This document shows positions 20,319-25,873 of a stretch of DNA of 64,000 nt, one piece after another. This DNA is from Escherichia phage slur16, in the sequence record NC_028248.1; one strand, 5' to 3'. A program made the position numbers and the translations under genes. Within the stretch, counting starts at the first letter, position 1; every line of letters starts with the position of its first letter. The notes below the pieces were generated by a model. That model was not told the origin of the DNA. It did no database searches and saw nothing but the letters and a program-made list of their open reading frames with translations.

Positions 20319-20637
20319 CGTTTATGTTCGGGCAAGGTCGCTAGTCTTGCCCCGCCATTTTCAGGCAGCTGCATGTCTCCATGCAGACCAGACTATATCT
20401 TATAAGCGACAACAACCGCTTATCCTCCCGTTTCGAATCGCTTGATTCTACGTCTTTCGACTAGTCGTTGAACGTTCATCCTCTCGGATGCTTCGCTGCG
20501 GATTATCTAAATTAACACACTGTTACCATACCTTCGATCTCTCTTCGAAGCCTCTATCATGTTACCATGACAGGTTGGTGGTATTAATAGTAAAGATTTC
20601 CCCGCAATTAGGGAGGTTTTACGAGAGCTACAAATTA
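20319..20637 (-). mobile_element. group I self-splicing intron (ORF-less) in terL
   Basis: Minus-sense conserved elements in order: P AAUUGCGGGGAA (20609-20598), Q AAUCCGCAGC (20504-20495), R GUUCAACGACUAGUC (20473-20459), S AAGAUAUAGUCUGG (20401-20388); no ORF; splits Walker ATPase from nuclease domain. Confidence 0.8.
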
Positions 20638-21063
20638 ACCCTCATCGAAGCAAACCATGGTGTACTCAAGCCCTTGATGGTTAAGCTTATCTTGTACATA
20701 CTCCATGTGGCAGTATTTTACAACAGCTCCCTTTTTGCTTCTATCCCACTTGCCAGTGTTCGGATCAAACCGTGGAAAAATGAACTTATGATCCTTCTCT
20801 CTGAACTTTGGCTTAATGTTTTCAGGCAGATCACTATAAATAGCTACCGCTTTAGGCCATAGTCCACCCTCACCTTCCAACTGCGGGGTTGTTCTTCGGA
20901 ACATAACCACAGAGCTGTGGGGGTCATCAATAATTTTAAGTGGCATCAATTGCAAGAGGAACGACTTGCCAGACCCTGCGGCACCGCCGATTACCAAAAT
21001 ATCTGCATCGTTTTCGAGGATCATCTTCTGCTTTTCAGAACACGGTCCGTAAATCTTAGACAT
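20638..21063 (-). CDS. terL: terminase large subunit, exon 1 (ATPase domain)
   Basis: Walker A GGAAGSGKS and Walker B-like VCFDE; ORF-track stop at 20635 lies in intron sequence. Confidence 0.8.
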
Positions 21064-22412: not shown

Positions 22413-22511
22413 GGTGCTAGGTGATGGAATCGAACCACCTATGTATTCAACGACTACCTCGTCTATTTTCAGGATTAAAAATCCTCGCCCTTGCCAAAGG
22501 GCTTACCTAGC
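22413..22511 (-). tRNA. aberrant tRNA-like gene (possible pseudo-tRNA; Lys-UUU-like anticodon loop but oversized variable region)
   Basis: Perfect 7 bp acceptor GCUAGGU/ACCUAGC, D-arm GCCC-UUUGGCAA-GGGC and T-arm GGUGG-UUCGAUU-CCAUC, but ~47 nt between D- and T-arms; only CC encoded at 3' end. Confidence 0.3.
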
Positions 22512-22814: not shown

Positions 22815-22901
22815 TGGTGGGGAGTGGTGGAGTCGAACCACCCGAGTCGTAATGACAATAGATTTACAGTCTACACCGCTACCTCTACGGGATAACTCCC
22901 C
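22815..22901 (-). tRNA. tRNA-Tyr (anticodon GUA), type II
   Basis: Acceptor GGGGAGU/ACUCCCC; anticodon region AGACUGUAAAUCU as in E. coli tRNA-Tyr; long variable arm; T-arm GGUGG-UUCGACU-CCACC; CCA encoded. Confidence 0.85.
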
Positions 22902-22905
22902 AATT

Positions 22906-22980
22906 TGGCACCCCGTACTGGACTCGAACCAGTGTCAACGGCTTAGAAGGCCGCTGCTTTATCCACTAAGCTAACAGGGC
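22906..22980 (-). tRNA. tRNA-Arg (anticodon UCU)
   Basis: D-arm GCUU-AGUGGAUA-AAGC, anticodon stem GCGGC/GCCGU with loop CUUCUAA, T-arm ACUGG-UUCGAGU-CCAGU, CCA encoded. Confidence 0.8.
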
Positions 22981-23076
22981 ACTGGGTGGCTTTCTTTTAC
23001 ACCTTAGCCGCCAGAAAAGGTGGGAGACCATGTTTACAATATTACACTGTTAAGCAAAGTTTGTCAAGAAAATATT

Positions 23077-23415
23077 TTAGCTATTGCTAACAGGTTGTAT
23101 TTCTGTGGTAAATGGCATAAAAGGTGCTGGTTTTTCAGCCTCTTCTACTACCACCTCTTCCTCTTCACCAAACATCTCATCATATTCTTCCTGCATTCGG
23201 TCTGCCTTATCAAGAACATACTCTGCAATGCTTTGACGAATATTTTGTTTGGTTTTCGGGTCCAACATCAGCTCTCTTAGAACTTTGTGAGCTTCTGGAA
23301 CCATCGCTATAAAAGATTCCTTCATATCGAGGATGTTCTTCTCTAGCTGAATGGCGTTGGACTCCTCTTTCAGAGGTCTGCCTCTACGGCGACGCTTTTT
23401 AGTTGTATCCGCCAT
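23077..23415 (-). CDS. small basic protein with AT-hook-like RGRP motif
   Basis: Start at ATG 23415 with GGAGGA RBS; N-terminal KKRRRRGRP, acidic C-terminus; ORF-track upstream extension has no RBS. Confidence 0.45.
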   Translation of the reverse strand: MADTTKKRRRRGRPLKEESNAIQLEKNILDMKESFIAMVPEAHKVLRELMLDPKTKQNIRQSIAEYVLDKADRMQEEYDEMFGEEEEVVVEEAEKPAPFMPFTTEIQPVSNS

Positions 23416-23763
23416 GTTTCCTCCATTATCACGTGATAGGTGGATTTTATCATAGCAAATACTGATTGTCAAGTTCGCCGCAGGGTGGTATTCCCTGCGA
23501 CTTGTCCAGCGTCCTGGACCAGCAAGACCCAACAAGTGGGTTTTCCAGCTATACCCATTACCGCGCACAGGCTCGACCTTATTACAGGTTGGCTGGGGTC
23601 ACATCGTCATGTGCTGGCTGCCCCTACCATTTTAAGTGTGGTGCACTATCAAGCCCTCTAAGGGGAACTCAGCTTTCTCCGAACCCTGTTTCAAAGCATC
23701 CGGAGATAAAGCCATCAAATTCATCTTTAAATTGGATATTCATCATGATACACGAAAACAACC

Positions 23764-24006
23764 TCATTGTAAAGCACAAATAAATAAAACATACTTGATT
23801 TGTTTGTTATCGGGCTCAGGGTAGAAGTAGAAGATCTTGCTATCACCGATCTGAACACCACCATCCCAACAGCATAGCCCATAACCCGTATTCATACAAG
23901 CTAAGTCGTTGGCAAAATCTATTGCATCATCCAGTGCACGAAATTCACCTTCATCTTCTAAATAATCCTCATTCATGGAACGAAAAACGAGCTTAACCTT
24001 AAACAT
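23764..24006 (-). CDS. hypothetical protein
   Basis: 80 aa ORF in minus-strand gene string. Confidence 0.35.
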   Translation of the reverse strand: MFKVKLVFRSMNEDYLEDEGEFRALDDAIDFANDLACMNTGYGLCCWDGGVQIGDSKIFYFYPEPDNKQIKYVLFICALQ

Positions 24007-24082
24007 AGCATTACCTGTAGACCTCGTAAGTTAAAATTGTATCACATCATATTGCAGATCTTATCAGGTAACATTATTTTTG

Positions 24083-24292
24083 TCAACAGATTCCGGCCTT
24101 ATCCCTCCTGTCTGCGTATTCTTTAATCGCAACCTCATCTGCATTGGTGACTAAATCTTCAAAGTAACTCTCAAGCTCCTCGTCAATGTCAGGAAACCAA
24201 CTCTTTTTCCTGTCAGTGTGAATCGCAGACTTGTTGAATTTATTACAGTTCTTTGCTACCGGATTGTTCATTAATCGCCCCTCAGCGTTCAT
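24083..24292 (-). CDS. hypothetical protein
   Basis: 69 aa ORF overlapping upstream gene end by 11 nt. Confidence 0.35.
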   Translation of the reverse strand: MNAEGRLMNNPVAKNCNKFNKSAIHTDRKKSWFPDIDEELESYFEDLVTNADEVAIKEYADRRDKAGIC

Positions 24293-24860
24293 AGTAAATC
24301 TTATTTAACATTACCTCATCCTTTGCAGAAAGAATACCGAGATATGCATCACCGAACCTACCTGCAACAACCTCTACATGATACATAACTTCGTTAATAT
24401 CGTCAAGAGTGATAACTGGATGACCGTACCTCTCTGAGTATTGTCTCAGAGTGCGATGTAGGGAATCATCATCGTAGGCAGACTTTTTAATATCACAAAC
24501 ACGACGAATAGCCTTGATGTCGAAAAACCCTGTGCGATACCAACCAAGAAAAAGGTTTCGTACAGTGTCAACACCTACATCAACACCGTCAAGAACCTTA
24601 TCTACAAGATAGCTGTCATCCTTTGGACCTGCTTCCTTAGTTCGAATGTAGTTGCCATCTTTTCCTGGTGACAGCTCCTTCTCATCACCAACCTGAATGC
24701 CATCATTTGGCGGTGTTAACCACTTATCCGGATGCTTACGATCACGAGCGTTAGAATGATTACGCTGGAAACCTGGCTTCCACTTGAAAGTTTTCTCCAT
24801 CTGTTCTTCATTCTGATAACGTTTTGCAATCTTTTCACGGTCATCTTTGCGTGGACTCAT
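24282..24860 (-). CDS. hypothetical protein
   Basis: 192 aa ORF with strong RBS (GAGGAGG 5 nt before ATG at 24860). Confidence 0.5.
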   Translation of the reverse strand: MSPRKDDREKIAKRYQNEEQMEKTFKWKPGFQRNHSNARDRKHPDKWLTPPNDGIQVGDEKELSPGKDGNYIRTKEAGPKDDSYLVDKVLDGVDVGVDTVRNLFLGWYRTGFFDIKAIRRVCDIKKSAYDDDSLHRTLRQYSERYGHPVITLDDINEVMYHVEVVAGRFGDAYLGILSAKDEVMLNKIYYER

Positions 24861-25365
24861 AGCTGCCTCCTCTTCAAGTTATAGAAAAACTCACTGTATC
24901 GCTTTGTAACGAGCTTTTCTATCAAACTGGTGCGATTGCCTTACCTGGTATAGTTTATATAGCTGTGGAGCGATTTAGGGGCCTTCTTGTCCGTTTCCAC
25001 ACATAAACTTCATCCAAGCTCGCGCGGGAGACTCTCAACCGACTCCTTACGGCGCTGGCAAGCTTTCGTCGGTGGTCCACATCAGTGCTCGGCCTTTGGC
25101 CTGCGCTATCGCTTCGCTCCCACACATGTTAACAGACCTTCATGTATGCACTTCTGTTATTGTGTGCACCAAGGAGGCCCGGCATCTCGCCCCTCGTAGG
25201 CGAGTGCCAATGAAGGGCCGACACTACCTATAGTAAGTAATAAATTTAAAACATGGTACTTAGGATCTAGTATATTCTACATAAGTTAAGTATATGTATT
25301 TAGTACCATAAGTACTAGATCTTTTATTTTTTTTATTATTTAGTTATTTTAGTTATATTCTTTAT

Positions 25366-25448
25366 GTGTCCGTATCACGGACAGTTAGTGTCCGTATTAC
25401 GGACAGATGTGTCCGCGTGACGGACAGTAGTGTCCGTATCACGGACAG
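25366..25448. repeat. four tandem palindromic sites (core TGTCCGT-NNN-ACGGACA), spacing 21-22 bp
   Basis: Copies at 25366-25384, 25388-25406, 25409-25427, 25430-25448; copies 1 and 4 identical; flanked by AT-rich DNA (25321-25365). Confidence 0.9.
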
Positions 25449-25522
25449 TTACTAACCTCTGTTCCAGAGTGAACATAAAACATACGAATCCTTATAGTAC
25501 AGATATTTAAGTTTTTACTGGT

Positions 25523-25873
25523 CTAACCAGTTGTTGACATTCGAATAACTTCTTCTGGTGGCAAAACTTTGGAAAATGTGCATCTTTTACCTCTCCCTTG
25601 TGTGGATATTTCAACCACTCCTGCACATTCTAAAGTTTTAACGCACGCTGCTGCTTTTGTTTTCTTTATCCCAATATCTGCTGCAATTTTCCTTGTGCTG
25701 GGCGTGAAGCGTGAATTTCCTCCAAGCTTATACCAGTTGTGCAGGTAGCAGTATACGATCTTGTCATATAAGTCAAGAACAACAACCTCACCAGTTGTGT
25801 CATTCAAAACTTTTGACATAGACAGTATTTCAAGGGGGACTTTAAGATATAGCAGCTTATCCCCATCTTTCAT
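25523..25873 (-). CDS. winged-helix / HTH DNA-binding protein
   Basis: 116 aa; segment FTPSTRKIAADIGIKKTKAAACVKTLECAGVVEI resembles a winged-helix recognition unit; ends ~75 bp from the palindrome array. Confidence 0.45.
   Translation of the reverse strand: MKDGDKLLYLKVPLEILSMSKVLNDTTGEVVVLDLYDKIVYCYLHNWYKLGGNSRFTPSTRKIAADIGIKKTKAAACVKTLECAGVVEISTQGRGKRCTFSKVLPPEEVIRMSTTG

Follow-up and report, generated by a model that had tools for sequence, protein, structure and literature searches.

Between the open reading frames (ORFs) ORF75 and ORF74 of Escherichia phage slur16 (sequence record NC_028248.1), the stretch of 64,000 nucleotides (nt) analyzed here, called the window below, carries on its minus strand, at 23668–23473, a structured non-coding RNA. 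The ~80-nt heart of this RNA (23624–23545) consists of a hairpin domain with the stems S1 and S2, a 46-nt three-way junction and a pseudoknot. As judged from its sequence and its relatives, the RNA is probably functional and previously undescribed. The window phage is rV5-like overall (Vequintavirus), and the 1.1 kb around the RNA was 100% identical to Escherichia phage slur12 and 95–100% identical to 117 rV5-like (Vequintavirus) records. All genes of the locus lie on the minus strand, and the order in the direction of transcription is ORF75, the examined interval (23763–23416), ORF74, and seven transfer RNA (tRNA) genes. The features of the locus are as follows:

24006–23764, minus: ORF75, the gene 5' of the RNA region, with its stop at 23764
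23669–23767, minus: a 32-amino-acid ORF, coding and outside the RNA (annotated in slur12; match to PHROG 6828, E = 8.7e-9)
23473–23668, minus: the structured non-coding RNA region in full, 196 nt; position i of the RNA is window coordinate 23669-i
23444–23472, minus: sigma-70 promoter P74, TTGACA-17-TAAAAT, outside the RNA (annotated in the rV5 record and found by promoter scan, 11/12 matches)
23416–23443, minus: the 5' leader of ORF74 with a GGAGG ribosome-binding site, read from the sequence
23415–23077, minus: ORF74, the gene 3' of the RNA region, with its ATG at 23415
22980–22167, minus: seven tRNA genes 3' of ORF74; the first tRNA ends at 22980

An earlier note, made from the letters of the window alone, had described the whole of 23416–23763 as a GC-rich, hairpin-bearing stretch without a convincing ORF. 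This held for 23473–23668, but the two flanks have other roles: 23416–23472 is taken by P74 and the leader of ORF74, and the other end by the 32-amino-acid ORF (23669–23767), the ATG of which overlaps the stop of ORF75 (ATGA), i.e., it is translationally coupled to ORF75. Once these were removed, the non-coding part not otherwise accounted for was ~23473–23668. The GC content at 23475–23700 was indeed 0.51–0.59 against ~0.40 in the surroundings, and the hairpin quoted at that time (CGCAGGG/CCCTGCG) is real and lies at 23479–23499. The plus-strand ORFs had been taken for artifacts, rightly so, because close relatives differ across 23473–23668 by 3-nt and 4-nt indels that shift the frame, and no conserved ORF was left there. 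The minus-strand fold was better than that of shuffled sequences (z = -2.87, with 0 of 200 shuffles as good), whereas the plus-strand fold was unremarkable (z = -1.60, 13 of 200 as good). Moreover, the RNA was assigned to the minus strand because of its many G-U pairs. All 196 nt act as structured RNA, and the ~80-nt pseudoknotted domain (23624–23545) is the part common to several phage families.

Two simpler identities were ruled out. Since no U-tract follows the 3' hairpins, these are not an intrinsic terminator, and the lack of any minus-strand terminator-like site at 22900–25700 disposes of both a terminator and an ORF75 3' untranslated region (UTR) hairpin. There were no tandem repeats at 23300–23900, which excludes the antitoxin RNA of a type III toxin–antitoxin system (ToxI-like, with tandem direct repeats of ~34–45 nt).

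The S1 and S2 stems of the window RNA were present in both the minimum-free-energy and the centroid folds. With RNAalifold, the consensus of the eight full-length Vequintavirinae RNAs was poor, as these come from just two clades. Beyond the single fold, the structure rests on a family-wide model alignment that replaced this consensus and was made with the covariance model R1, the source of which is an alignment of 24 diverse copies (A1). From 5' to 3', the RNA has the following parts:

23625–23668, minus: 5' block GUUCCCCUUAGAGGGCUUGAUAGUGCACCACACUUAAAAUGGUA, invariant between two Vequintavirinae genera, with small hairpins CCC/GGG and ACCA/UGGU
23595–23624, minus: S1/S2 hairpin domain, directly 5' of P1
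23624–23621 with 23598–23595, minus: S1, GGGG/CCCC, from the predicted fold and from complementarity kept across lineages
23614–23617, minus: pseudoknot strand a, CCAG, within the 5' internal loop of S1; pairs with CUGG 23548–23545
23613–23609 with 23604–23600, minus: S2, CACAU/AUGUG, with a GACG loop
23553–23598, minus: 46-nt three-way-junction core, scored by R1 at 66.6 bits with E = 9e-20 (E-values of R1 are rough, as its calibration was shortened)
23593–23590 paired with 23557 and 23555–23553, minus: P1, with G23556 bulged
23589–23576, minus: P2, the core stem-loop ACCU-GUAAUA-AGGU
23575–23573, minus: J2/3, junction strand CGA
23572–23563, minus: P3, a 3-bp mini-hairpin
23562–23558, minus: J3/1, junction strand GGUAA
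23545–23548, minus: pseudoknot strand b, CUGG, 3' of P1
23541–23527, minus: hairpin H4, ACCCA/UGGGU, 3' of the core
23526–23501, minus: hairpin H5, GUCCAG-GACG-CUGGAC, 3' of the core
23499–23479, minus: hairpin H6, CGCAGGG/CCCUGCG, the one quoted in the earlier note

The three-way junction is the best-supported part. R1 found exactly one copy of it in the window (23598–23553), in which P1, P2 (ACCU-GNRRNA-AGGU), J2/3 (C-R-A), P3 and J3/1 (GGUAA) were all recognized and every pair was formed. The family consensus has ~22 invariant bases, with P2 as ACCU-GUAANA-AGGU, C-R-A in J2/3, GGUAA in J3/1, and a bulged G in P1. Among the 24 copies of A1, the closing pair of P1 was AU in 14, UA in four, CG in three and UG in three and was never unpaired, and the middle pair of P3 was CG in 21, UA in two and GC in one. 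A broader alignment (A3) of 58 distinct copies, which were aligned by R1 after a looser pattern scan of IMG/VR, had 91.5% of its cells paired and a covariation of 0.340 against 0.103 in shuffles (reached by 0 of 500), while shifting the 3' partners lowered the pairing to 25–42%. Pair 8-48 occurred there with five pair types and pair 7-49 with three. A register of P1 without the bulged G had also been tried and was replaced, as it gave 88.6% pairing against 91.5% and a covariation of 0.276 against 0.340. The copies found by R1 alone had GC or GU as the closing pair of P2 and the loops GUGAAA, GCAAAA and GUAGCA.

The S1 stem lies 5' of P1 in every lineage, whereby its sequence differs and its complementarity stays. 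It is GGGAA/UUCCC in T4, GGAAC/GUUCC in the sister genus of Vequintavirus, UGAAUG/CAUUCA or UGAGUG/CACUCA in Klebsiella siphoviruses, and AAAGGC/GCCUUU, AAAGCU/AGCUUU or AAAGA/UCUUU in class-2 T4-likes, 21 of which had pair 14-61 as GC (12), CG (seven) or AU (one). The CUGG of the pseudoknot is constant in rV5, L008 and L109 although the linker from P1 to it varies (GUAUAG, GCU, GUAU, GUU). In other lineages, the complementarity between the S1 loop and the tail is kept with other sequences, namely GAGG/CCUC (L012), GUGAGGG/CCCUUAC (L077), GGGUA/UACCC (L058), GGGAG/CUCCC (L106), GCCUA/UAGGU (L098), CUUAG/CUGAG (L108), CUCAU/AUGAG (L090) and UGAACC/GGUUUA (L112). Across 31 representatives, the duplex between a copy's own upstream region and its own tail had a mean of -11.9 kcal/mol against -9.9 for mismatched partners, with one of 20,000 permutations as good; this test is supportive rather than proof, since some of the 31 are related to each other. 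The window copy thus has both traits of the family, the R1 core as well as a covarying S1 5' of P1 with a pseudoknot between the S1 loop and the tail.

Outside the core, the support comes from Vequintavirinae. In a Vequintavirus contig (L109), H4 has become UCCCA/UGGGA and H5 GCUCAG/CUGAGC, all of these changes being compensatory, and P3 has compensatory changes as well. The sister genus has a second copy of CCC-AUAGA-GGG-CUUGAAAGUGC 3' of the core. A GACG hairpin loop recurs in the window RNA, in S2 (23608–23605) and in H5 (23513–23510), and is found again in S2 and a 3' hairpin of the sister genus (L012, L077) and in S2 of L098.

When the interval was compared by sensitive blastn with 50,697 phage records, 903 gave a match. 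Full-length matches were confined to the 117 Vequintavirus records; the other ~786 matched only a 45-nt piece (window 23596–23552, CCAGCCAACCUGUAAUAAGGUCGAGCCUGUGCGCGGUAAUGGGUA) with 85–95% identity. The latter were mostly T4-likes of Escherichia, Shigella, Klebsiella, Yersinia, Salmonella and Citrobacter, together with Vibrio phages, and altogether the core was carried by T4-likes, rV5-likes, Klebsiella siphoviruses, a jumbo phage and marine phages. In comparison, a strict pattern had no match in 185,579 bacterial and archaeal species genomes, and a loose one gave a single credible match in the same set, on the 949-kb megaplasmid pPLMAXa of Pseudomonas sp. PLMAX. This copy (L133 4521–4569; 38.7 bits) has S1, closes P2 with a G-C pair, and sits in a ~0.8-kb gap without a convincing ORF and with no tRNA within the 8-kb stretch around it. 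The earlier note had suggested an Rfam scan and a look at conservation. The core turned out to be kept in ~900 phage records, and none of the 4227 models of Rfam 15 overlapped 23416–23763, whether the gathering score was applied or the filters were relaxed and E was allowed up to 10; a search of the copies from T4 and Vibrio phages likewise gave no Rfam match at E up to 10. The core sequence was not printed in any paper of the literature searched. Tandem copies of the motif, ~70–90 nt apart, occurred in several Kanagawavirus-like T4-likes and an uncultivated phage (L020 1195–1376, L043 5096–5252, L104 9019–9176, L102 828–958); in the second copies, P2 is closed by a G-C pair and J2/3 is shortened.

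These data bear on the view that the region has no function as RNA and is made of decayed tRNA genes, GC-rich spacer or protein-coding sequence (plus-strand ORFs, or an N-terminal extension of the Vs.8 protein in T4-likes). Such a view could draw on the tRNA genes which other Vequintavirinae have at the equivalent position and on the RefSeq annotation of T4, where the motif is given as coding. Decay of tRNA genes was ruled out, as the region has no similarity to those tRNAs and neither ARAGORN nor the Rfam tRNA model found a tRNA or a cloverleaf in the interval. The compensatory base-pair changes, the indels shifting the reading frame in Vequintavirus relatives, and a core that stays ~90% identical across families while neighboring proteins diverge to 34% identity all speak against it too. 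As to Vs.8, the T4 copy (L118 3360–3405, corresponding to NC_000866 ~64,859–64,904, minus strand; 67.8 bits) lies within the RefSeq vs.8 gene (64253–64912), the 5' extension of which, ~40 codons, covers the motif. Since an in-frame stop separates the motif from the conserved vs.8 start in 16 of the 19 T4-like loci, and vs.8 of the relatives starts downstream, the T4 start is probably mis-annotated and the extension an annotation artifact. The motif was presumably overlooked in T4 because it was annotated as the first ~40 codons of vs.8. Taken together, an absence of function, or a coding role, is close to refuted and hardly merits any weight.

In the T4-likes, the RNA always lies immediately 5' of vs.8, irrespective of the gene upstream (denV, ip7, ipIII or a hypothetical one). 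Vs.8 belongs to PHROG 1488 with a weak P-loop signal, and it is this protein which diverges to 34% identity next to an RNA core remaining ~90% identical. No vs.8 homologue was found in the window. The Vequintavirinae phage Av-05 (L014) carries the T4-type RNA together with a vs.8 of 91% amino-acid identity to that of T4, which suggests that an RNA–vs.8 cassette has moved horizontally between phage families. Searches of PHROGs, Pfam and PDB sequences with ORF74 and Vs.8 returned only "unknown function" and sub-threshold P-loop or terminase-like matches. A separate feature of the T4-likes, 40–70 nt 3' of the core (e.g., L019 ~1285–1300), is a conserved hairpin GCCA-AGGAA-UGGC, which immediately precedes the ribosome-binding site of vs.8 and has an AUGGA motif on its upstream side; we take this hairpin to resemble a binding site of the GGA-in-loop (CsrA) type.

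The main rival to an RNA acting by itself is a cis-acting sensor or leader, riboswitch-like or sensing a protein or tRNA, that would control vs.8 in T4-likes and ORF74 with the tRNAs in the window. The constant place before vs.8, the joint occurrence of RNA and vs.8 in Av-05, the tandem copies, the aptamer-like pattern of conservation, and the position of the RNA 130–360 nt upstream of tRNAs in several phages would all fit it. However, a near-consensus promoter, P74, stands between the RNA and ORF74 in the window, the ORF74 homologues of five other genera do without such an RNA, and outside the T4-likes no downstream gene is common to the copies. A terminator comes after the RNA in L112 and L115, the copies of L088, L096 and L098 lie behind the last tRNA, and no terminator/antiterminator or Shine-Dalgarno-sequestering alternative structure was found. 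A cis-acting leader or sensor is therefore regarded as unlikely.

Three-way-junction aptamers do exist among riboswitches, e.g., the purine riboswitch. The family shares with them a size of ~50–100 nt, covarying stems around invariant junction and loop bases, the occasional tandem arrangement and, in T4-likes, a place in the 5' UTR. It differs in that no consistent downstream gene was found outside T4-likes, where tRNAs, terminators or a promoter follow instead, in that many copies stand alone or after tRNAs, and in the lack of any Rfam riboswitch match or recognizable expression platform. Of the hallmarks of a riboswitch, the aptamer-like core with covarying stems was thus present, whereas a constant 5'-UTR position and an expression platform were not.

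Apart from vs.8, the recurrent neighbors of the RNA are tRNA genes. A same-strand tRNA lies within 1.2 kb of it in 12 of 19 non-T4-like lineages, in comparison with 0 of 23 chance pattern matches in bacterial genomes (Fisher p = 4.6e-6). The RNA follows tRNA-Ser by 36 nt in L112 and tRNA-Glu by 43 nt in a 360-kb contig (L088), and its distance to tRNAs is 131–166 nt in L096, L098 and L100; it lies between two tRNAs in L058, L093, L101, L103 and L108 and after the last tRNA in L088, L096 and L098. Several copies look like separate transcription units or ends of such units. A promoter TTGACA-17-TATACT ends 7 nt before the first conserved RNA base in the sister Vequintavirinae genus (L078); the unit of L115, ~175 nt long, runs from a promoter-like site over the motif to a strong 13-bp terminator; and in L112, the RNA after tRNA-Ser is followed by a hairpin and a U-run, as read by eye. 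Overall, the family is absent from Rfam, nearly confined to phages, and typically found on the tRNA strand within tRNA gene arrays.

The earlier note had thus been right in supposing a structured non-coding RNA on the tRNA strand that is linked to tRNA clusters, as borne out by covariation and by recurrence inside the tRNA arrays of unrelated phages, but several details did not hold. The RNA is not just upstream of the tRNAs in the window: it is separated from the first of them, with its end at 22980, by ORF74 as well as by two promoter-like sites (P74 and P(tRNA)). For the same reason, the role of a tRNA processing leader, which had been offered as one possibility, is unlikely in the window, and the copies of other phages end at a terminator or come after the last tRNA. 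The other possibility, an analogue of the small stable RNAs of T4, did not stand either: R1 scored nothing in rnaC/rnaD, and the T4 copy is 6 kb away, 5' of vs.8.

The proximity to tRNAs raises another possibility, a self-cleaving ribozyme or a dedicated processing module that would cut polycistronic tRNA-operon transcripts. Many invariant unpaired bases in a small, pseudoknotted junction are what one typically sees in small ribozymes, the position between or beside tRNAs that need excision would suit such a role, and so would the restriction to phages. Yet no cleavage site could be identified, no Rfam ribozyme model matched at E up to 10, and neither the T4-like position nor the stand-alone units need any processing, which makes self-cleavage an improbable function. 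In a group of 46-kb Klebsiella/Roufvirus-like siphoviruses (L025, L032, L048, L059, L105), tRNA-region modules are bracketed by inverted repeats of ~16 bp, CACAACAGGTAAGAGCA ... TGCTCTTTCCGTTGTG, and the motif is located between two such modules; the repeats resemble RNase III-type processing stems.

ORF74, the gene next to the RNA in the window, is a member of PHROG 3330 and has an Arg-rich N-terminus (MADTTKKRRRRGRP), which in our view resembles the RNA-binding arm of lambda N. One could therefore regard the RNA as a nut-like recognition site for the ORF74 protein, the more so since RNA, P74 and ORF74 are adjacent in both RNA-carrying genera and the P2 loops (GUAA, GCAA, GUGA) are GNRA-like, as in boxB. 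Against this, ORF74 had no significant Pfam or PDB match, and its homologues in Mydovirus, Seunavirus, Henunavirus, Certrevirus and a Serratia phage lack the motif nearby. Moreover, the RNA occurs in hundreds of phages in which no ORF74 homologue was seen, though none was searched for there. A nut-like site is consequently a very improbable explanation.

It has long been known that phages carry additional small RNAs, without a known purpose, in their tRNA clusters. Those of T4, rnaC and rnaD (species 1 and 2), have to our knowledge stayed unexplained since the 1970s. Like the window RNA, they are phage-encoded, non-coding, on the tRNA strand, and in or beside tRNA arrays, but they are unrelated to it in sequence and structure: rnaC has a tRNA-like T-arm at its end, which the window RNA lacks, and with filters off R1 found in the T4 stretch L118 (61.5–74.5 kb) only the copy upstream of vs.8, the tRNA region scoring at most 8.8 bits. 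GOLLD and ROOL are large, ornate RNAs of several hundred nt or longer, both in Rfam, which often occur in phages near tRNA genes. They share with the window RNA the phage-borne state, the place next to tRNA genes and the intricate structure, whereas the window domain is ~80–196 nt long, has no Rfam match and belongs to other hosts and phage groups. The RNA is homologous to none of rnaC, rnaD, GOLLD and ROOL.

The double T-loop module of the tRNA elbow has a signature of six invariant bases, AG..A and UG..A (PMC3664808). Apart from the tRNA-related context, the P2 loop UGUAA fits the UG..A half, and GGUAA of J3/1 may be set beside it. The AG..A half was not conserved in A3, so a tRNA-elbow docking module of this kind was rejected and the likeness is speculative. 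A survey of IMG/VR, the same data source as that of our scan, predicted 10,006 candidate structured RNAs, including unnamed tRNA-like and cis-regulatory phage candidates (Fremin and Kyrpides, 2023; PMC10690425); its main text, on which the comparison is based, names no T4 or Vequintavirinae motif.

Besides the RNA region, the window has a second long non-coding stretch on the minus strand (24861–25520), which occurs only in Vequintavirus and is unrelated to the RNA region; the GC-rich non-coding part taken as 24861–25530 had no similarity to 23473–23668. It holds four copies of the palindrome TGTCCGT-NNNN-CGGACA at ~25363–25455, directly downstream of the helix-turn-helix protein ORF79 (25873–25523; Pfam HTH_36, E = 1.5e-5), and these are followed by an AT-rich segment and then by a GC-rich one (0.58) at ~24960–25200. 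Within the tRNA cluster, ARAGORN reported at 22413–22511 (minus) a 99-nt "tRNA-???" with a four-base anticodon (atcc), scored at 35.5 bits by the Rfam tRNA model and annotated in slur12 but not in rV5; this may be a tRNA that contains an insertion, or else an unusual decoder. A group I intron at 20369–20647 (minus) was recognized by Rfam (RF00028, 84.3 bits). Its host is probably the gene of the terminase large subunit, the annotation of which in rV5 joins three pieces into a coding sequence that, on the window scale, ends within ~0.5 kb of this position.

As to what the RNA does, we lean, with a little better than even confidence and from sequence comparison, toward a stand-alone stable RNA that would be matured from an operon transcript, and the invariant junction of which would bind a conserved partner related to tRNAs, translation or tRNA-directed defense. 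In the window, it would be transcribed together with ORF75 and the 32-amino-acid ORF from an upstream promoter, P75, and in the sister genus presumably from its own promoter. It may then be cut from the polycistronic transcript, or persist from it, as a stable small RNA and act by itself, not as a control of the next gene. The surface made up of the invariant junction and loop would bind one conserved partner common to all these hosts or phages, most plausibly a component handling tRNAs or translation or a tRNA-directed defense nuclease, which the RNA might titrate, decoy or assist.

Several points weigh against this explanation. The constant neighborhood with vs.8 would be explained by cis-regulation or an RNA–protein partnership no less well than by a free RNA. 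In the window, ORF74 and a distance of ~490 nt separate the RNA from the first tRNA, and other Vequintavirinae genera have the tRNA genes directly upstream of their ORF74 homologue and no RNA; because they lack it, the RNA is dispensable for Vequintavirinae. The promoters and terminators are consensus matches only. Some sequences of the alignments are related to each other, and phylogeny is not taken into account by the shuffle controls, so that the shuffle-based statistics are inflated; the invariance of P2 and the junction is in part an artifact, as the patterns used to collect the copies fixed those bases. Finally, the proposed binding partner is pure inference.

More tentatively, the domain formed by the junction and the pseudoknot may be a new functional RNA class, exchanged and kept by virulent phages of many families, T4 included. 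Members of such a class might be miniature tRNA mimics that decoy or recruit a tRNA-handling enzyme or an anticodon-nuclease defense, or else a new small ribozyme or a new ligand sensor; a class of any of these kinds seems to us possible, with the balance somewhat against it.

Myoviruses, siphoviruses and a jumbo phage have the core in almost the same form, and cellular genomes are essentially free of it. This conservation across families, together with the horizontal spread seen in the Av-05 cassette, points to a selected function, which probably touches translation, tRNA handling or counter-defense. With a copy in T4, the best-developed of phage genetic systems is open to direct tests of that function. 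To the RNAs of phage tRNA clusters, the finding adds one which is far more widespread than rnaC and rnaD of T4 and different from both.

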